A stretch of DNA of 64,000 nucleotides from Vermamoeba vermiformis (GCA_045837725.1 JBEWZL010000188.1:1-64000), one strand, 5' to 3'. Numbered from the stretch's first letter, positions 24 through 50,000 are shown. Notes: generated by a model not told the origin, from the sequence alone. Numbers and translations: made by a program.

Positions 24-217
24 TTATGAGAAATTGCAATATGTAACCAGAACAAGAGGAAAACTGCAAAAGTTTAACAAAAATAAAGGCATTCGATGAT
101 GAAACAGCAAAATTTAAACATAAAAGGAGTACAAAAATAAATTCTAAGAATACCAATTTATTTAGTTAGTAGAGCAAAAACCTTCGAACAAGGATAAAAA
201 GATCTACAAAAAGGTGC

Positions 218-2945
218 TTACTCATCTTCATCTGTTAAAACAAATCGACGGACTGGTGACATTTGCCTGTCTTCCGCAACACCAACATCAGCTTCAGAAT
301 CATTGTTGTTGTTGTTGAATTTTGGCATTGGTGTGGTACCTCGGACACTTGGAGTAACAGGCAACAAAGGCTCATCAAAGGCGTCTGGCAAAAAAGCTTT
401 GGCTGGAGTGCTTGGCTGATGCACTGTCCCCTCAGGTGCAGCAAGAGAGGACACAGCAAGGGCAGCAGAGACAGCTAGAGCAGCTTGGGGGTCTTCGACA
501 GAGCGACTCAAAACTCGGCAAACGTGGGCTTTAATCTTGTTCTTCAGTGGGCCGTTGGTGATGTAGCCCACGTAGCTGCGGCTTGATAGGGCAGCAGCAA
601 TGTAACCGGTCTGTAAATGAGTTAGTAAAGCAACGTGAAGGTTACAACACGACATACACCAGAGAAGTTGTTGAGCTCCAAAATAACACCATCAGTAGGA
701 GTGTACACAGAGAAGATGAAAGACAGAACCTGGACTGGAGGTTGGCGTGGAAACAACGCAGTTGAGGTCAAACTGAGCTTTTCACGAAGCATCTCATAAG
801 CAGGAGGTGTTTTAAAGACACCATGCTGCCAATTTGGGTTGTAATGCCCATGCTTGACCCAGACACCACCAGTGGAATTAAAACATGGAGCGTTGCCATC
901 ACGGAGTCGCAAGAAGTAGAAATCCCAGGTGGTTTGAACGGGATTAATGCCAGTGAAGGACTTAACAGGAGGGGCGCTCAGGCATGCAGTGTATTTGAAC
1001 TCGAACACCAAAGGATTCTGTGGTTGAGAAAGCGAGTGAAAAATTGAATACGCTGCACTCGGATCTGCAAGAACAACCAGGCGAGAAGCAAGATGCATGC
1101 ATTTGAGTATTGGCTGCAGCAAGGAGTTGCGGAATTGCTCAGCAGTTTCAAGCACTAAGAAAATAAGATCCTCTTTGAGTTGCAGCTGAATGTGAGAGAA
1201 GGAGTTCACCACTCGGAAATGCGGGTCAAAGTGCTTTTCAACATTAGCCACTAGTTCTTTGCGGAAGGGAACATCCTCGTCCACGTCACTCTCGGATTCA
1301 TCATTGCCAGGCACAGTAATGACAGCGCCTTCGTTGTCGTCCTTCTTCTGCGAAACATAATGAGAAAAAGAAAAACGCGTGGCGCGTTTTTGGTGACTTA
1401 CATTCGGGCGTGACTTTTTTTGAGGTGGTTCTGCATCTGCAGGTGCAGCAGGGTCCCTGTCACGCTTTCTGGATTCCTTTTCTGGAACCGGGAGATCAAC
1501 AGGCAAGCGTTCTTTCTGAACCTTATCTGCAGCTTTTGTGTTCTTTGACGCAGTTGGCGACTTCTGAGACAAGTCAGATTGGTGGTGGCAAAAACGCGTG
1601 GCGCGTTTTTACAGGTACTTACTAGGACTGTTTTGGTTGTTGCAACTGCTTTGACTTTCACGTTCTTGACAGCCACCGAGGCGTTCAAATCTTTGATGAA
1701 GGCTTGCATTGCGGCATTCTCCAAGTCATTTGCTGTAGCAGTCTCCAACGCTTCAAAAGTTCCAGCTTGGATTGCTTCCACATAGTCTTCCAGAAGATCA
1801 GCATTGGGTGCCTGTTTCCTGACATAATCAACCATTGAAACAATGTGCGCTTGACGAGCAACGATACCAGAAAATTCTGAAAATGATTAGATATGAAAAA
1901 CGCGCCACGCGTTTTTGCTTACCAGTCAAACTTGCTTTGTAGTCGTTTTTTACTGCCCAATTTACAAACTCCTCAATAGCTGTTAGTTTGTACATATCGT
2001 CCAACTTCCAGAATGCTTTGTTCTCAGTGACGCAGGATAGCTTCATCGGGTTTTTGTAGCCATACTTCAAATGCAACTCTTTGAGTTTGTTGTAAACCGC
2101 GTTTTTGGTGATGTCATCAGCTCCTTTGTTTGTTAGCTTGTTGTATGCAGTGTACAACTTCTTGGCCGAGTCCAAAGCAAGCCCATCTCGTTTTCCCTGG
2201 AGAACGCGTTAGGTGGAATTATCACTTTCAATATTGGTACTTACAGATAACTGGTGAATGCGCTCCCAGTTTACCGTCACCTTTTTACCCTTCGCTTTTG
2301 TTCGGACACCAGGCATTTCGAGGTACCGAATGAGCTTCTGCAGGTACTCGAACCAAGGGGCTTTGGCAGTACCATCTTGTGCTTTGGCATTATTAGCACC
2401 GGCAAGAACCTCTCGTTCTTCTTCAGACATGGCAACACCATTGAGGGAAGCTTTCAAAATGAGGCACGGCCATTCTTCGATATCACTACAACATGTTAGC
2501 ATAAGCAAAAACGCGTCACGCGTTTTTACTCACTGGCTTTGGAAAACTTCAAAACGGTGATTTCCGCCAAGAATTAGGTACTCCGGCTTCTTGTCTTTGT
2601 TAACTTTTTCTTCTTCTGGAAGCTCCTGTAACAGAAAAGGCTCGCTGTAATCCAGGCCTTTGTCGAAGTTTCCGCCACCCATTTTAGTGATTTGTTGTTC
2701 GATGGTTTTTTTGCCTTCTTCCGTCACCAAACGGTAGTTTCCTGCGTAGTGGTTAGTAAAAACGCGCCACGCGTTTTTGCTCCCGTACCTCGTTTTGTCA
2801 TTTGTGCCAGTAGAACATTGTGTGGCTTATCGAACTTAAGCCATTTCTGGAGCAGTTCTACAGGCTTTTCAATGTTTACGAGCTCCTTCTCCTCGTCTTT
2901 TTCCTCCTGTTTCTTGGAGGCATTTCTTCTATTTGTGTTGCTCAT
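218..2945 (-). CDS. Transposon partner protein, 792 aa: ParB/Srx-like N-terminal domain, low-complexity linker, degenerate N4/N6 DNA-methyltransferase-like domain
   Basis: Eight exons (2945-2789, 2741-2534, 2485-2245, 2196-1923, 1876-1623, 1563-1402, 1347-658, 610-218) joined by GT-AG introns give an open 2379-nt frame. ParB-like motif: YLILGGNHRFEVFQSHDIEEWPCLIL. MTase-like motif: RQPPVQVLSFIFSVYTPTDGVILELNNFSGTGYIAAALSSRSYVGY. Confidence 0.8.
1371..1391. repeat. 21-bp palindrome copy inside intron 1348-1401 (minus-strand gene)
   Basis: AAAAACGCG-TGG-CGCGTTTTT; the intron reads GTAAGT...TTCGCAG on the minus strand. Confidence 0.95.
1590..1610. repeat. 21-bp palindrome copy inside intron 1564-1622
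   Basis: AAAAACGCG-TGG-CGCGTTTTT; the intron reads GTAAGT...TCTCAG on the minus strand. Confidence 0.95.
1896..1916. repeat. 21-bp palindrome copy inside intron 1877-1922
   Basis: AAAAACGCG-CCA-CGCGTTTTT; the intron reads GTAAGC...CTAAT...TTTCAG on the minus strand. Confidence 0.95.
2507..2527. repeat. 21-bp palindrome copy inside intron 2486-2533
   Basis: AAAAACGCG-TCA-CGCGTTTTT; the intron reads GTGAGT...CTAAC...TGTAG on the minus strand. Confidence 0.95.
2758..2778. repeat. 21-bp palindrome copy inside intron 2742-2788
   Basis: AAAAACGCG-CCA-CGCGTTTTT; the intron reads GTACGG...CTAAC...CGCAG on the minus strand. Confidence 0.95.
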
Positions 2946-3088
2946 GTTTGAAGGTAATGAATAATGAGCGCAGAAAATTTTTTTGTTGTCGACGGTTTGA
3001 CTAAATGTTGACCGTTGACCAAATGTTGACCAGGTCAAAAAGGAAAAACGCGCCACGCGTTTTTGCTATTTATTTAATCACAACAACA
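2946..3088. promoter_or_regulatory. 143-bp divergent promoter region containing one palindrome copy (3044-3064) and GTTGACC direct repeats
   Basis: Lies between the two head-to-head ATGs (2945 on minus, 3089 on plus). Contains AAATGTTGACC twice and AAAAACGCG-CCA-CGCGTTTTT. Confidence 0.65.
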
Positions 3089-5123
3089 ATGGACACACCT
3101 CTTCTTAATGTGGTTCTTGCTCTACCACCCCACGAAATCGAGCCCGCTATTTTGGAAGTTTTGCAGCATCAACAAGTTACTCTGCACTTACGTGTTCTGA
3201 AACATGCTTCAGTCCAGCATGCTCTGCTATCCAATTATGGTAGATCCCTGCAGATTGCGGCTAGCAGTGAACGCACTTCGGGTTTTTTCCGTGGATCTTT
3301 GTCCTCAATGCTTCACGCTTCAATTGACAAGGCAGCAGTTGCTTCACTGCTTAACGTTTCACCAAGCAGTGTTTCTCGTGCTCTTGCCAAATCAAATGAA
3401 CGATATCACACTGCAATGATGACTGGCATTCACAACAAGTTTGCTTCCCCAACGAAGTACAAAGTTAGTCGCCTTCCAGTGGCCACCTCCATTGTAACTG
3501 ATTGGATCATTTCACACTGTCGACCTTCTGCAAACTCAGCCAATGTAGTTCGCAATCGCAATGCTGATGGCACATGGTCTTATGAAATAATGCACTATCG
3601 CAATGAGTCAATTGCAGAGCTGTTCACCAAGTACAAGGTATGTACCAAAAACGCGTGGCGCGTTTTCTAACACCCTTCAGGTGCAACATCATGCAGATGC
3701 TGTCGGCAAATCTACATTCTATTCTCTTGTGCCCAAATGTGTTTATCTTCAGCCCTACTATTCTGGTCTCTGCCCAACCTGCGCATCGGATAAACATTGG
3801 CAGATGATGCTTTCTCGAAACAGGCGATCATGGCACGCCGACTGCCACTGCCAGTGCACCTACTGCACAGTTTGCAATCATGCGCCATTATGCCCTTCTG
3901 ATTGTGTTTGCAAGGGTGATGAGTGTCCTATTGAAATGTCAAATATTCCACAACAATGGATTGTCCCTCAGGCCAGCAAAGCTCTGCACAATGACCGTGA
4001 CAAGCATGCCCCAAATCAAATGGTTCATGTATGGCAGCAAGGCACACGGCGCCAGTTCATGGAGAATTGCAGTCTTGTTGCTGAAAGGTGCACTGATCAC
4101 AAGCTTCATGTTTCTTGGCAAAAGCAAATTGTTTCAACACTTAAGAAGAAGCTTCCTTGGAACACTGTAATGATGCGCTGGGATTTCTTAATGAACTATT
4201 CCCATGTTAGCTCGGTTGAAGTGGGCAATGCTTTCTATGGGCGCCGGCAGTCTACTGTTCTAATTGCCACTGTCTGGTATCATGGACCTGACAGTACACC
4301 AGACTCACCAAAAATCACTAAAACCTACCATGCATTTGTCAGCCCTTACCTGTCCCATTCTTCTTTGGTTTTTCAAAAAGCGTTTGCTGCACTACTTCCA
4401 CAATTGGATTTGAACACAGATGTTGTCAACTGCATCATTCTCTCTGATGGAGGCATGCAGCATTTTAAAAACAGAATATCAATGCATTGGGGAACAACTG
4501 TCTTCAACAAGTTCAATATCCGCTTACGTTGGATAATTGACCCTGCTTACCATGGCAAGGGTGAATGTGATGGCCGTGGTGCTAAGCTGAAAAAGAAAGC
4601 TAAAATTCACGTTCTCAAAGAAGATGGTTTCCTTGATACTCCAGAACAGCTAGCCAATTACTGGAATACAGTGCCTGGTGGCACTTCGTCGTTTCTCAAC
4701 ATAGACTGGGAGGATACAGAACAGGATGTGCAAACGATAAATGGCATTAAAGCCTGCTACGACTTCTGCTTCTCACGCAATGAAACTCAGTTGTACATGA
4801 GGAAATGGCCTTGTGTGTGCACTGACTGCCTCGACTTTAACTTTGGCAGTTGCAAGCGAAGTGCTCAAGTAGGAGAATGGTTGTTTCGTCAGACAAAGCC
4901 AACCACTGTAAATCACCCAAAAGGACTCAACCCTCCTGTTGTTGTGCAAGAAGAAGTAGAACACTGTGAGGTGGAGAAAATCGTCGGTAAACGTACGTTC
5001 AAAGACAAAGTGCAGTATCAGATTAAGTGGCTTGGCTTCACAGAAGACTACAATGAATGGAAGTACGAAGATGAAATGGATTGCGAAGACCTTGTTCTTG
5101 CTTTTGAAAACGATCACAAATAA
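3089..5123 (+). CDS. DDD-type transposase (Sola-like), 663 aa, with N-terminal HTH, Cys-rich regions and C-terminal chromodomain
   Basis: Exons 3089-3637 and 3681-5123 (43-nt intron GTATGT...CTAAC...CAG, phase 0). Putative catalytic Asp motifs: RWDFLMNY, ILSDGGMQHFKN, HGKGECDGRG. HTH-like KAAVASLLNVSPSSVSRAL. Chromodomain EVEKIVGKR...YQIKWLGFTEDYNEW. Confidence 0.85.
3647..3666. repeat. Palindrome copy inside the single transposase intron 3638-3680
   Basis: AAAAACGCG-TGG-CGCGTTTT, followed directly by the CTAAC branch point. Confidence 0.95.
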
Positions 5124-5201
5124 AAATGCAACCCTTTTATTTTTGTACAATAATTGCAATTTCAACACAAAAATAAATTCTTGTAAATATTGCCTGTTTT
5201 G

Positions 5202-5224
5202 GCTGAGACTCATGGATCTTGCCA
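5202..5224 (-). repeat. Right terminal inverted repeat
   Basis: GCTGAGACTCATGGATCTTGCCA is the inverted copy of 1-23 and lies 78 bp after the transposase stop. Confidence 0.8.
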
Positions 5225-5422
5225 TATTCTTCAGTATAAAATGCTTATGTAATAATAAATAAGGTTGATTGGTGCTTCAGAACAACGTAAGCGAAACCGA
5301 GCTGATCAACTGATTGAAGAGATCAACGAGCCATATAAAAACAATAGTATTAATCAATATAGTACAAAGAGGTGCTAATAACACAATACGTCATCAGCTA
5401 TTAGGGTCAAAGTTTGGTCAAG

Positions 5423-8503: not shown

Positions 8504-8550
8504 TTTATTACACTAATTAAAAGATTGTTTATTTAAATATTTTTGTTTTG

Positions 8551-8564
8551 TTTTTTTTTTTTTT

Positions 8565-8633
<69 letters not shown>
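8551..8633. repeat. Poly(T) tract of about 70 nt directly followed by poly(A)13
   Basis: Direct reading; lies between two convergent 3' ends. Confidence 0.9.
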
Positions 8634-8761
8634 TCAGATCTGTTCTGCCACCTTGATCTAAATTGGCGTTTGTTTGCTGATTATTGTAATTTGAGTTTAA
8701 TATAGTAAATATAGTAATTTGAGTTTCATGTAGTAAATAGATGTTTGAAATTCCCCTTGAT

Positions 8762-25423: not shown

Positions 25424-28400
25424 TTATTCAGAGCAACCAATAGCAGTAATATCAGTGATTCTTGAGCCCAAGTGAGTGTTCTGAGCCGAAGGACCATAAG
25501 TGATCTGGATGTAGCGAACAGCGGCAGGTCGGATCAAAGGCATCTCATAGATGAAGTTGGTAATATCAGCAACGCCATCAGGAACACCAACGAGTTGCCA
25601 GTCGGTCCAGACACGGTTGTCCAAAGAAACTTGAACGCGGATGTAGTCCCAAACGGCTCTGTCGCGACCAGCGGGAGTCACGTGAGTGCCAATGGACTTG
25701 ATGTAACGCAATTGACCCAAATCAACAACGATCTGTTGGAGGTCGTCACCGTCAGCAAACAAGAAGCCAGTCTCGCCATCAATCATCCAAGGAGTCTGTA
25801 AAATAGGTCGGTCAAAACTGGATCTAACCCCGATCTAACTGTCCAATATTCAAGCTTACCTTATCTTGTTTGAGCAAGTTGTCGAGAGTATCTTGAGTCT
25901 TTTGAGTGTGAACTGACGAGTAACCAATAACTCGAGCTCCAGCCTTCAAGGTGGCATAGTTGGTTTGAACAGGGCATGACAAGTCTACAATAGAATCCAT
26001 TAGTATATGTAAGTATTAGTAGTAGATGAGGGCTACTTACCAGTATCAGCATTGCCTTCAATGTAATCAACGATGGCTTGGTGCAGATCCGCTCGTTTTC
26101 GTTCGTCTTCGATCATCTCGGACAATTCCTTGAGCTCGAAAGTGATCAAAGTAGGATTGTCCTTGACACTCTTAGACCAGGCATCAGACTCTTCCATTTG
26201 GAACAACTCGGGGTGTCCTCCGATGTAGCGAATGTTGTGGTTGCTGGCCTCTTGGAACTCGTTGGTCAAGCGACGCTTGTACTCGCTCTTAGCAGAGGTG
26301 AAAGACAAGTGATGATGAAGCCAAAAGTAAAGCCAGATTGCTTCTTGATGTAAGTCTCGTCACTTTCCATCAACTTGCTCGTGTTGACAGTCTGTTGCAT
26401 GCTAATTTGACCGCCAAAAGTAGCCTTGTGCAAGTAGTGCGTACCGAAGTATTGAATGAAGCGCAAGTACTGGTGCTTAGTGTTGCGGTTGTAGGGAGGC
26501 AATTGAGACACTTGGTAAGCAGCGTATTGGTGCATTGTGAGCGTGTTAGGACCGCAGCAAGGAGGCAACAAAATAGCTAAAGAAATTACACGTCAATTAC
26601 GCTGTAATTACATAACAAAATGTCACAAAGCTTCTTACCATCGAACATTTTGTACCATCTGTCGTAAGTAACGAATCTCATGGCATCGTTACGAAGAGTG
26701 CTGGTGACAGTAATGGTTGTCTCGGATCTGCCAAACAAACCAAAGAAGAAACCGAACGAGAAACCAGTGGTCTTGGCACGTCGCTCGAGGTAAGCACGAG
26801 TGTTGTTGTAGACCTCAACATGCTCTTCAACAATGACTTCAGCGTTAGCGTTGATCATGACTTCGTTGGGAACAGCCCACTCGACAAAGTTGCCAGCGTA
26901 AGGGTTGTCCATGAAGCGCTCATCGTCGTAGTTGAACTGAATGACAGGGAGTCTGAACTCTTCGAAGACTGCCAGGTGCGAGAGTTAGACGAGAAATTTC
27001 ATCGTTTAAGTTTACTTACCAGCGTCGTAACCGGCACCGAGAAGGTTGACAAGAGGGTTTTGAGAGTTAGGAGAGGTAGAGAACTCTTCCAAGTTGAGGG
27101 CAACCAACTTCTTGGCAATGAAGGCGAGTTCGTTGTTCGATTGCACGGTGTACACGGCCTTAAAACAAGTTAGTCACGTGTTCTCATAAATCATACCGGT
27201 CAAGTAACTTACAACTTCGTGGACCTTGCCTCCTTGAATACGAAGAGGAATGTTGAAGCCGTGGTTGCCCAAGACGTTCCAAGCGTCGTTGACGTCTTGA
27301 CGCAACAAAGTAGTGGAAGCAGGTCTGCGTTTGTTGGTGACACGAATGTTGTCGATGAAGATAGCAATCTCGACTTCATTGTCGGGCTTAGCGGGATCAA
27401 TAGCCCAACCAACAACACGGTCAGCAGTCAACTCTTCAATGACACCACGAGGGTATCTCAAGTCAAGTTGCACGGGGTTGTACAACATTCGCTTTTGACC
27501 ATCGAGAATGGCGTAGGCAACGAAGTTGAACATGCCAGAGCCTCGAATGTTGACAGGAATTCTGAAGCCGTGGTTGCCATCAACGTTCAATGCAGCACGA
27601 GAGACGGGGAAGTCAACGCCGGTTTGACCAGAAGCTTGAAGTTGATTGTTTACCCAGATCTCAATTTGGAGAGGGTTAGGAGGACTGAATCTGTTCCAAG
27701 CCCAGCCGCTGACACTACACGAAATCGATCATTAGTTTTTGTCGTGTCAAAAGTGTCAAAGTGTCAAAAACTACGTACGAAGCAGGAGTGACGTCCATGA
27801 GTTTGCCAGGAGGAGGAAGACCCCAGACCATGTAGTGAGCACTCTCGCGAGTGTGTCCGTTGAAACCAATCAAGACAACATACACATCAAAGCGACCTTC
27901 GCCAGGCAAAGTGATGGGAATGTCGTAGCCAATGCGATCAGAGGAAGGCAATTGGAAGGCGTTTTGAACGTCAGGACGAGGATTTGCGGGTCTGCCTTCA
28001 GCGATTTGTTGACCATTAGCGTAGACTCTCACAACGGCGTCACGTGATTGGTCGAGCGAGTTGAAGATCCAACCACTAACTCTTGTCTCGAGAGCAGTCT
28101 CGAGGTTACCGAGAATTCGGTTAGCTGACTCGTCTATAAGTGATCGTTAGTAAAGCTAATATGGAGTAATTGTAAGGTTAACGTACCAACACCAAAACCT
28201 TGGATCGAGTAGACACGAGATCCAGCGGGTCCTTGCTTAGACCAAGGACCAAATTGAACGTGAATGAAGCGGATTTTACGAGGGAACTTGATAGACACTT
28301 CGTTGGTGCGTTGAACGATGTCGGGCAAGTTGTCTTCTTTGCCGATAGTTCCGAAATGTTCCCAGTTGCCGTTCGTCTCGGAAGTGTAGAAACGAATGAA

Positions 28401-47092: not shown

Positions 47093-50000
47093 TTATTTCT
47101 TGGCCTTCAAAGCATCCACGTTAATGAACAACGAGCTAGCCAAATTATCGACCTTTCCTTTCGGTACTTGCGAAACTCCATAACTAGGTCTGCGAATTTG
47201 ATCGCTCTTTTCAAGACTACGCGCATACTCTTCTTTTTGGTCTTCGTTTACTCCTTCAGGGATCGCGCTTCGTCCGTAACTAGGTCTGTGGTCTCTAATA
47301 TAGCCATAATTGCCTTTACGTTGAACTTTGGGAATCAGTCTCTTTTTGTCATCTATTTTAAATAAGAATTAGTAACTAGAACAAGACTTTTTGAGTCGGA
47401 TCGCATCCATAGATCTCAGTTATTCTGGATCTCATAGTAATTACCTTTAGGCTCTGGTTCAGGTTCGTACTCTTCTTCCTCCTCAATCTCATCTTCGAGA
47501 TGCACTTGTGGTGGCACGTACTCATTTTCAGGCTCTTGTTCAGTGACGTCTTCTAGCTCGACAGCGCTCTCAAAAGACTTGGATACTGGTGGCTCTGGAG
47601 GCTTGTAACGAGATGGTACAGGTGGATAAGGCAATTTACGCGTGCGTGAAGGTACTGGAGGATATGGCAATGGTCGGTTAGGTCTTGGAGGGCCATCGGG
47701 GTCATAGTCTGGTGGTGCATCCGGATCGTAATCTGGCGGGAAATCTTCTTCTTCATATTCTTCAGGTTCCTTATTTGCGGACACTACCATCAATTATAAG
47801 TAATTACGATCATATTTCTAATGCTAGACGCGAGATTTAAGCGTTAAACTTACCAGGTGCGTAATAGATCTCGTACGGCACAATACCGCCCATCTTAAAT
47901 CCAGGGGACAAAATGGTTCTTAAGCATACCAAGCATCCCACAACAACTTCGGCTGAGAAGTAGATCACTAGCGAGAGCCAAGCGAATGGATCACCAAAGT
48001 AGAGGCCGAAGAAGTTGAGCAAGCACACGTGCGCACCATGAGCGAGCACTGCTAAGCATAAGAACGACATCATGACGATAAGTCTTGCGGATCTGTTCAC
48101 AATTTCAGCGCCAAGTGTAAAGAACGCCAAAATCACCATAGCACCGCTCATTGTGATCTTGCTGATTTGATCCCACAACGCTCTATTAATACAAATCTAG
48201 TTATAATGCATTCACAATGCCGCCTACTATAGAAAAAAGATACCGTGAGTCTCGAAGGTATTCTATCAAGATCAAAATTGCGACGTAAAAGAGCAAGTTT
48301 GCAGCGTTGATAATGATGTGGACCAAGTTTTTTCTGAAAAGCAAGACGAAGCAGCCTTGCGTGAACCAACCACGGTGTTTGAAACGAACGATGGCTTGAC
48401 CGTTGTAATGTATGACGGTCCACATGAGCAATGATAAGGCCGAGACCATCAATGCAAGTGGAGCTTGTTCGATCAAGTACCAGCCCAAGATGTAATCGTG
48501 CACAGGATTCATACGCAAGAAATGCAAGTGCATAATGAGGAACAAGTGGACCTGTAACAAAAAGTTAATTAAATTGTCAGGTGTCAAAAGTGTCAGCCAG
48601 TTAAAATGTCAAACTTACGCCTCGAATAGCAGCAATGAAAATGACAGTGCAGATCACTAATGTCTTCCACTTTCTGTATCCGTACATGAACTTCGAAGTG
48701 CTATTCTTGACGGTCCAAACGACAATGAGCATGACGATTGCGAAGAGTGCCATGAAGCCGTAAGCACCAATAGCAATCCACAAGAACATGTTGTTCCAAT
48801 ATGAATCTCGAATCAACTCGCTGCGCATGATTGGCACGAACACTACGTCCTTCTTGATACGAGCACAAACGTGTTCTGAAGTCACGTCAAGTTGTTCGAG
48901 TTCCAATGGTTGCACGTGTACCTTCCATCTGTCGTCATAAATGACCTCTCCAATATCATAGTGCGGGTACAAATCATCGAAGGAGATATTGTACTCGGGA
49001 CGTCTAATAAAATAATTAATATTCGAGACATATTAACTTATTATGAAGAACGAAAATATGACCCAAAGTGACCGGGTCACAACTGTGAGAAAAATGTTAC
49101 CTATCAAAGCAGACGTAGTAACCGGTCTCCATGTCAAGCACGGCGGAAGTATTGTTTCCAAAATCAACTTCAATGCCATCGCCAATCAAAATACCAACTT
49201 CAAAGCCTTCCCACATAACGAGGTTCTCAATCAAAATGCGGTTTCTGCCGTCATCAAATCTGTCAGCCAATGAGACTTGGTTCTCGGCACCAACAAATGA
49301 AGTAGCAGGAATCGTCTTGAATGTCGCTACAAAGTTATCGACCAAAATTCTTGTCGAGTTGTCGAAGTAAACTGTCGCAAAACCAGCCTGTGACACGTGT
49401 CAAAAATGAAAGTTTCACAGTAAATCTTAGCAATGCTTACGTTTGCAGACTTGGTGAAGTTATTGAACACATGCACCATGTTCACTGAAGTCGTGTACCA
49501 GAACTCTTTGGTGCCGTAGTCGCAGTTAGCATCACCGCAGTAGCACATGAAATGATCGACGAAACCGAACAAATAATCAAATCTGCAAAGATACTCAGAC
49601 TTGATTTGAATAGCTGTCTTGCGCGTGATAGCATTGTCGAGGATATCCTGCAACTTAGTGAAGTTGACTGACTTGATCCACTTGTTGACGGATCCGTAGT
49701 ATCTCGGAGCCCAGTCAAGAGGGTTCATAACACCTGGCTTCCAGCTGCCCGGTATCCAATCATAGACCTATAAGATATATCATTAGTCTACTATCTTTTA
49801 ATATGTCTCGGGACTTACGTTCTCAACACGACCACCGCAAGCAAGACATTCAGAAGGAGGCTTCTCGCTGCGTCGTTGAATGTACTGATCGGTGTTGACG
49901 TCAAACTCGTCTTCAAGACACATCGTGCCAGATGACGCACACAACGCTTGAGTTCTCGATCGTTCAATCCAGCGAGGGTACGCGACACCATTGTGCGTAC

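Follow-up and report, generated by a model that had tools for sequence, protein, structure and literature searches.

We analysed a 64,000-nucleotide stretch of the Vermamoeba vermiformis genome (GCA_045837725.1 JBEWZL010000188.1:1-64000; hereafter the window), the left part of which holds a putative transposon whose tiny introns carry copies of one short palindrome. The element is compact, with two divergent genes over approximately 5 kb and a 143-bp intergenic space between their start codons. Its genes and introns are as follows:

221..2945, minus strand: gene A, 8 exons and 7 tiny introns, 792 aa, no assignable family
3089..5123, plus strand: gene B, 2 exons and 1 intron, ~663 aa; putative transposase with a helix-turn-helix (HTH)-like N-terminus, a Cys cluster, an RNase-H-like core and a C-terminal chromodomain
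2742-2788, 2486-2533, 2197-2244, 1877-1922, 1564-1622, 1348-1401 and 611-657, minus strand: predicted introns 1 to 7 of gene A (A1 to A7)
3638-3680, plus strand: predicted sole intron of gene B (B1)

The eight introns were read off the sequence on the basis of frame restoration, splice signals and likeness to candidate host introns. All are of the GT..AG type and they measure 43, 46, 47, 47, 48, 48, 54 and 59 nt. Removing the seven minus-strand intervals yields a single 792-aa frame from an ATG at 2945, and removing 3638-3680 on the plus strand yields a frame of ~663 aa from an ATG at 3089 to a stop at 5121-5123. A branch-point-like YTRAY motif, located by regular expression, lies 10-20 nt before the AG in all introns save A6, which has none.

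One palindrome recurs in six of the eight introns

The original prediction for this DNA held that a single 21-bp palindrome occupies six of the element's eight introns, in both orientations and in both genes, that it never enters an exon, and that one copy is intergenic. A pattern scan of the window for AAAAACGCG-NNN-CGCGTTTTT (A5-CGCG-N3-CGCG-T5), allowing up to two mismatches, bore this out: it returned seven matches, six in predicted introns, one in the space between the two start codons and none in exons. These copies, together with a lone half-site and the two introns devoid of a full copy, are:

1371..1391, gene A intron 6 (1348-1401): palindrome, centre TGG on the plus strand and CCA in the transcript
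1590..1610, gene A intron 5 (1564-1622): palindrome, centre TGG on the plus strand and CCA in the transcript
1896..1916, gene A intron 4 (1877-1922): palindrome, centre CCA on the plus strand and TGG in the transcript; begins 6 nt past the start of the 5' splice site
2507..2527, gene A intron 2 (2486-2533): palindrome, centre TCA, which makes it a fully perfect 21-bp palindrome; the predicted RNA stem covers the 5' splice site
2758..2778, gene A intron 1 (2742-2788): palindrome, adjoining an ACTAAC branch-point-like motif
3044..3064, 143-bp divergent promoter/5' untranslated region (UTR) space: palindrome, preceded by a TTGACY cluster and followed after 24 nt by the gene B ATG
3647..3667, sole intron of gene B (3638-3680): palindrome, last base C, overlapping CTAAC
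2098..2106, gene A exon 4: lone half-site CGCGTTTTT, outside the seven full copies
2197..2244, minus strand, gene A intron 3: without palindrome, only AACGCGTT at 2203-2210; distance from 5' splice site to branch point as in the motif-bearing introns
611..657, minus strand, gene A intron 7: without palindrome; interrupts a glycine-rich FSG/TG motif

Six of the copies are exact and the seventh, at 3647, carries one mismatch (last T to C). In 100 dinucleotide-preserving shuffles of the window the mean number of matches was 0.00. All copies fall within 1371-3667, that is, in 2.3 kb of the element, and the relaxed forms CGCG-N3-CGCG and AACGCG-N3-CGCGTT were found in the same seven places only, with none in the remaining ~59 kb of the window. 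The last two rows of the list likewise agree with what had been described for introns 2197-2244 and 611-657.

On the plus strand the centres of the palindromes read TGG three times, CCA three times and TCA once; in the sense strand of each intron they read TGG (A1, A4 and B1), TGA (A2) or CCA (A5 and A6), the variety of loops originally reported. Taken as double-stranded DNA (dsDNA), six of the seven copies are one identical 21-mer (centre TGG/CCA), present in both orientations. Stems are invariant at 125 of 126 positions across the seven copies, with no G-U-type or compensatory change, and all 28 CpGs (four per site; 56 CpG nucleotides) are intact. An extra GC sits on the same side relative to the centre in four of the seven palindromes, whatever their orientation, for which we roughly estimate a chance of ~2 in 10,000. 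The two 9-bp half-sites are 12 bp apart, centre to centre, and successive palindromes are spaced by 219, 306, 611, 251, 286 and 603 bp (counting the AACGCGTT remnant at 2203 gives 219, 306, 307, 304, 251, 286 and 603 bp).

Likeness among the introns is confined to the 21-mer, plus the GC in 4/7; the introns range from 43 to 59 nt, the palindrome begins 6-12 nt from the 5' splice site, and its flanks differ, in line with the claim that the rest of each intron is unrelated. The YTRAY motif starts at nt 33 in A1, A3, A4 and A7, at nt 35 in A2 and at nt 30 in B1, palindrome present or not. Since this start stays at nt 30-35 in six of the eight introns with or without the palindrome, the latter substitutes for the spacer between 5' splice site and branch point and does not lengthen the intron. 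As for host introns, in which a common occurrence of the motif would have counted against the original prediction, a crude scan of the window outside the element gave 48 candidate rows (45 distinct donors), and the palindrome is absent from all of them. These candidates are themselves predictions, of 40-90 nt and with GTAAGT/GTACGT and CTAAC/CTAAT signals in the style of the element's introns.

To see what chance alone produces, one can turn to 596 Gb of prokaryotic contigs plus IMG/VR, where the pattern was matched at 55 sites (54 + 1), every one of them single. Their centres comprised 33 different triplets, with CCA once and TGG, TGA and TCA never.

Eroded palindromes lie at matching places in a dead relative

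A metagenome scan with the gene B alignment led to four related loci, L002 to L005, none of which contains an exact palindrome; no related locus was found in viral contigs, and the 64-kb window holds no second copy of the element. Nucleotide identity of L002 and its near-twin L003 with the window element is 68% in gene B and 64% in the 5' half of gene A. L002 is dead, with three in-frame stops and a frameshift in gene B, a CpG observed/expected ratio (o/e) of 0.26 and a TG/CA excess of 1.45. Across the four relatives CpG o/e ranges from 0.16 to 0.30, with a TG/CA excess of ~1.45. In the window, CpG o/e is 0.69 for the element (200-5230), 0.60 once the palindromes are left out, and 1.22 for the host DNA (5231-64000). 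These values together suggest a CpG-directed mutational process acting on this element family.

Palindromes decayed at their CpGs are present in L002/L003 at matching places, namely in introns A1, A2 and B1 and in the promoter, and in L002 they read as follows:

L002, gene B intron: eroded copy AAAAACACATCCCATGTTTT-C
L002, promoter: eroded copy TAAACGCATGACGTGTCTT
L002, gene A intron 2: eroded copy ...TGACGTGTTTTT
L002, gene A intron 1, grown to ~320 nt: eroded copy 1, AAAACGCATCACACATTTTT
L002, gene A intron 1: eroded copy 2, AAAATGCATGATGTGTTTT
L002, gene A intron 1: eroded copy 3, AAAATGTGTGACGCTTTTT

As an example, the gene B intron copies of L002 and of the window are alike at 10/10 A/T stem positions, including the odd terminal C (TTTTC end), and differ by four CpG transitions and two centre bases, while the remaining intron is unalignable. 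Copies at orthologous places with a common terminal C imply that the palindromes predate the split of the two lineages. On this comparison, the palindrome is an old, family-specific feature, eroded in the dead L002 and perfect where both genes are intact, and, going by the 48 candidate rows of the window, is no feature of host introns. Two of the three copies in L002 intron 1 are inverted duplicates that have flanks and even decayed bases in common. The positions of the gene B intron and of gene A intron 1 are common to the window and L004.

The related loci offered some further observations. At 3651-3681 of L002, the 3' part of the intron is replaced by 31 nt that form a perfect palindrome with 15-bp arms; its right arm coincides with the beginning of exon 2 of gene B, and the whole resembles an inverted duplication made by template switching. 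Over 31 nt, from the end of gene A exon 1 into the intron, window 2785-2815 and L004 2522-2552 agree at 97%, against ~41% for the proteins there, and this stretch may be a conserved nucleic-acid element. Downstream of gene A exon 1, the non-coding DNA of L004 also bears three unrelated 19-nt palindromes (8+3+8) within 235 nt (2086-2320), far denser than in the 58.7 kb of host DNA. Gene A is kept in L002 only at residues ~24-277, and the left 1.7 kb of that locus (1-1680) is unrelated to the C-terminal part of gene A in the window, which means that gene A content varies among the relatives or that L002 has undergone rearrangement.

The space between the two genes contains a second set of repeats, which likely constitutes a core promoter element distinct from the 21-mer:

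2997..3038: promoter repeats, TTGACY at 2997, 3008, 3015 and 3026 and GGTCAA at 3033, forming the palindrome TTGACCAGGTCAA

TTGAC/GTCAA recurs in the intergenic region of L004, and TTGACA(C) repeats are found in several candidate host introns (e.g., 27709-27778 and 48552-48618). Elsewhere in the host part, 8528-8643 contains a run of ~80 T followed by one of 13 A.

The proteins encoded by the element

The C-terminus of gene B is a chromodomain (Pfam PF00385, 37.1 bits against a cutoff of 25.1, 3e-9), and in the AF2 model its fold gives HP1-type matches at Z 9-10 with an rmsd of 1.5 A. Weak but concordant HTH matches occur at residues ~73-120 of exon 1, followed by the Cys cluster. In 21 homologues of 17-62% identity, H140, D168, N172, D256, H291, G292, D297 and K304 (numbering of P0001) are invariant, and the acidic triad D168/D256/D297 is thus retained in 21/21 aligned sequences. 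The AF2 model (mean pLDDT 55.9) shows a b1-b2-b3-a1-b4-a2-b5 core with the first two acidic residues on b1 and b4. Matches of this core to known folds, made with a model of that mean pLDDT, are weak: PIWI, EndoV and retroviral integrase at Z 5-6 or Foldseek TM < 0.2. A profile search gave 6046 matches in 1.84 billion representatives; the best 150 mostly cover the chromodomain only and many span the core. Relatives of exon 2 fall in 6 clusters. No Pfam family was found for the core, either in gene B or in the 14 core-covering homologues that were scanned. Taken together, sequence and model point to gene B as a putative DDD-type RNase-H-fold transposase outside any assigned superfamily.

Gene A is harder to place. 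Its exons have no match in Pfam, PHROGs, NCBIfam or PDB sequences, nor does the L002 read-through have one in Pfam. The leads are unconfirmed. Protein-atlas features connect exon 7 to N6_N4 methyltransferase clusters (0.88) and the N-terminal half, as read from L002, to a ParB-N cluster (0.84, rank 17). By eye, GGNHRFE resembles a ParB/Srx motif, and FSG/TG...AA...R..G (exons 7-8, 221-1347; split at the slash by intron 611-657) resembles the SAM-binding motif I. The canonical catalytic motif (D/N/S)PP(Y/F) was not found in gene A: the best candidates, on our reading, are LADPSAAY in the window and LAAPDAAY in P0166, with an unconserved D. SAPPV is conserved but atypical as a methyltransferase catalytic motif. 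The AF2 model of exon 7 is unusable (pLDDT 34.5), and relatives of this exon amount to one cluster with one partial homologue of 166 aa, no longer one having been found. Jointly, these unconfirmed leads resemble a phage ParB-methylase fusion.

A dsDNA site array is the favoured reading

We sought to separate a DNA-level from an RNA-level reading of the palindromes. As RNA, the TGG and CCA copies would be different loops, but as dsDNA they are one sequence, which favours a DNA site. Moreover, the CpGs are unchanged in all palindromes although RNA would tolerate a C-to-U change in one arm as a G-U pair. The orientation-free identity, the common GC flank, the invariant stems and the dissimilarity to chance matches point to constraint or copying acting on an exact DNA sequence, not on an RNA structure. 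The reading that we favour, tentatively and with somewhat less than even confidence, is that the palindromes form an array of sequence-specific dsDNA sites for a dimeric binder, perhaps a protein of the element itself. What the sequences show is the anatomy, the orientation-free identity, the age and, within the window, the confinement of the palindromes to the element; binding, the binder and its effect are what we infer.

Under this reading, two 9-bp half-sites at 12 bp centre to centre would be a classic arrangement for a dimeric binder of the HTH type, with the N-terminal HTH of gene B, the gene A protein or a host factor as candidates. Because the element is compact, with a 143-bp intergenic space and genes filling ~5 kb, the intron spacers are the sole room for extra sites. 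One site would then lie in the bidirectional promoter itself and the others, there being no further non-coding room, in the spacers of six minimal introns, giving seven sites every 219-611 bp, all from -1.7 to +0.6 kb of that promoter. Once bound, such an array could set the transcription or chromatin state of both genes jointly, and with four CpGs per site its occupancy might depend on the CpG-directed decay that dead relatives display. A bolder version, which we consider quite improbable, sees in the palindromes the cis half of a self-contained epigenetic device: the CGCG sites would be marked or shielded either by the gene A protein, ParB-N-like and beta-class N4C/N6A-methyltransferase-like by its unconfirmed leads, or by the chromodomain transposase through its HTH, which would keep the 5' 2.3 kb of a heterochromatin-targeting element free of the host CpG-directed silencing that eroded the dead relatives.

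Several observations weigh against a bound array. The palindrome centre is TGG/CCA in six of the seven copies here, but TGA/TCA in five of the six of L002 (the other being TCC); centres uniform within an element and different between elements are not predicted by selection on a dimer site, and are predicted by homogenisation or re-copying. P0015, which is 90% identical to gene B exon 2, reads MLLCSTQCFPILQ directly upstream of that exon. None of the six translations of the palindrome fits this peptide, so the last 39 nt of the intron in the source of P0015, where the window copy sits, hold no intact copy. No copy can be recognised in L004 and L005 (~45% aa identity, CpG o/e 0.16-0.29), in L004 neither in the gene B intron nor in the promoter, though these loci are too decayed for absence to be called. 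The palindromes are not near the right end of the element either: homology with L002 runs to ~5220 and the last copy, at 3647, is ~1.5 kb away. It is around the internal promoter that the array is centred; the left end of the element is outside the window, and clustering near the element ends, typical of subterminal transposase-binding repeats, was not observed. The host part of the window is not enriched in related sites, with ACGCGT occurring 10 times and the half-site 4 times in 58.7 kb, near rough expectation (~12 for ACGCGT). Every HTH match in gene B is below curated thresholds. Finally, the promoter copy may lie in a 5' UTR, in which case all seven copies could be transcribed.

The original claim of a dsDNA site under selection is supported in its first half, given the identical 21-mer in 6/7 copies, the common GC, the invariant stems and the orthologous copies of L002, and in part only in its second, given the differing L002 centres and P0015. 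The sequences compared support both processes together: sites kept over a long time in the same places, and a degree of copying from one to another. The pattern of L002 copies fits concerted evolution or local re-copying, possibly by hairpin-driven template switching.

Alternative explanations

Copying could be the whole story. A selfish or passively homogenised mini-palindrome, a unit of 21-23 bp copied into tolerant non-coding spots such as introns and the promoter by hairpin-induced template switching, short-tract gene conversion or another form of mobility, would be uniform through copying and bring no benefit. It would explain why the GC flank and the asymmetric centre travel together in 4/7 copies in either orientation, why the centre is uniform here and different in L002, why L002 intron 1 has three copies, two of them inverted duplicates with common flanks and decayed bases, why the 31-nt palindrome of L002 resembles a template-switch product, and why P0015, a close relative, lacks an intact palindrome in the last 39 nt of this intron. 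Yet the same four places are occupied in two lineages diverged by 32-36%, and the common terminal C shows the age of at least these copies, which did not arise by simple re-insertion. Target-site duplications are absent, host DNA has none of the copies (0 in 59 kb, 0/48 candidate intron rows), and 28/28 motif CpGs are intact amid the depleted other CpGs of the element. To our knowledge, no nuclear mobile unit as small as 21-23 bp has been described. We regard this explanation as rather unlikely.

The original prediction had also raised a hairpin that gates splicing. In the pre-mRNA each copy would fold, ahead of the branch point and past the 5' splice site, into a stem of 9 bp closed by 3 nt and so collapse a minimal intron. 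Six introns of both genes would then be removed only after a helicase, temperature or some factor had opened the stem, and expression would be throttled or coordinated through retention. Six of the seven copies are indeed intronic and the seventh possibly in a 5' UTR, and the stem has the same RNA sequence in either orientation. The bare stem is predicted at -8.0 to -8.7 kcal/mol, intron 2486-2533 folds at -18.1 kcal/mol (z -3.55) with its 5' splice site GUGAGU paired, and the two motif-free introns fold no better than shuffles. Against this, z-scores are unremarkable in three of the six motif introns (-0.98 to -2.29), the RNA loops differ (UGG, UGA and CCA), and seven old copies show neither covariation nor G-U variants despite CpG hypermutability. 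Gating has no need of three copies in one ~320-nt intron of L002, nor of one in the promoter space. Splice gating is rather unlikely in our view but a serious competitor all the same, the hairpin being stable and six or all seven copies perhaps transcribed.

Least convincing is a DNA structure independent of proteins, in which CGCG prone to cruciform or Z-DNA, flanked by rigid A/T tracts at roughly nucleosomal intervals, absorbs transcription-driven supercoiling or positions nucleosomes over the 5' part of the element: the spacing (219-611 bp, or 219-603 bp with the AACGCGTT remnant counted) and the perfect palindrome with its A5/T5 tracts agree with it, but exon lengths dictate that spacing and a structural role requires neither an exact conserved 21-mer nor a conserved centre, which leaves it very improbable.

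Other candidates were dropped. A bacterial-type bidirectional terminator was discarded, 43 of the 55 prokaryotic and viral matches being under long open frames, which is chance level. Likeness to E2F, NRF1 or Zn-cluster sites was rejected by eye for misfits in orientation and spacing. Abutted element ends (terminal inverted repeats) were set aside, as 5124-5260 and its L002 counterpart bear no likeness to the motif. Nor does the palindrome behave as a mini-transposon of the MITE type: the 8-nt flanks of the seven copies contain no target-site duplication, and the unit is itself one palindrome.

Comparison with known systems

Repeated motifs bound by a transposase or regulator are known in DNA transposons, such as the 12-bp TnpA motifs of maize En/Spm and the AAACGG hexamers of Ac, which are subterminal and non-coding. 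The window element resembles them in having a short CpG-containing motif, potentially methylation-sensitive, repeated in both orientations near a promoter. It differs in that its repeats are 21-bp palindromes within introns, the nearest ~1.5 kb from the right end, for which binding is proposed from sequence. By analogy, the array would work most like the internal binding motifs of DNA transposons or like viral operator arrays. Arrays of cis sites in mobile elements are thus already known, and what would be new here, going by the sequence, is their housing in minimal introns.

Introner elements, which spread through a genome, also give several introns near-identical sequence. Here, however, only a core of 21-23 nt is common and the splice sites are not, one copy is non-intronic, no candidate host intron of the window (0/48) has the motif, and the intron positions go back beyond the motif comparison, B1 and A1 being in common with L004. 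With introns that are not alike over most of their length or at their splice sites, we rejected an introner or introner-like origin.

Helices between the 5' splice site and the branch point occur in yeast, and intron retention is regulated in the P element; known cases shorten long introns or use protein-bound exonic sites. The palindrome shares with these a stable predicted stem in the same interval and an expression that could depend on intron removal, but the introns are already minimal here, and the same exact sequence is used six times and in the promoter as well. Small dispersed palindromes include the PstI palindromes of Neurospora mitochondria, the GC clusters of yeast mitochondria, REP/BIME and the RPE of Rickettsia, all of them dispersed genome-wide in organelles or bacteria. 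They resemble ours as short GC-cored palindromes recurring in introns and intergenic spacers with signs of copying; ours, unlike them, is nuclear, belongs to one element family and keeps orthologous positions. The MluI cell-cycle box (MCB; ACGCGT) and the CGCG-box are transcription-factor sites. ACGCGT is present in 7/7 palindromes, twice in the TCA copy, but the conserved unit is 21 bp with A5/T5 arms and ACGCGT is unenriched in the host part of the window, a small sample for such a comparison.

In the literature searched, 17- and 15-nt strings of the motif appear in no paper, and 9-mers only in unrelated primer or sequence listings. Listings and abstracts on palindromes, introns and transposons, on transposons with chromodomains, ParB or methyltransferases, and on chromodomain DDE superfamilies describe neither the element nor the pattern. 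A conceptual neighbour is found in retrotransposons carrying prokaryote-type Dam adenine methyltransferases and chromodomains (bioRxiv 10.64898/2026.05.21.726589), which likewise combine mobility, a chromodomain and a possibly prokaryote-derived DNA-modification gene. The likeness stays conceptual: ours looks like a DDD-type DNA transposon in which the methyltransferase likeness of gene A is unconfirmed, and the portions of that report available to us include no ParB, introns or palindromes.

Significance

The element appears to represent an undescribed family, in which a gene of no known family diverges from one for an HTH/Cys-cluster/DDD/chromodomain protein whose core has no Pfam family. 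If the favoured reading of the palindromes as a dsDNA site array is true, transposon introns would serve as a parking space for a repeated regulatory DNA site, providing an operator-like array at no coding cost. The element would also offer a natural system in which to study how a transposon escapes or senses CpG-directed silencing, with 28 intact CpGs in an otherwise CpG-poor element against the eroded sites of dead copies, and whether selection can act on the sequence of minimal introns as DNA rather than as RNA.

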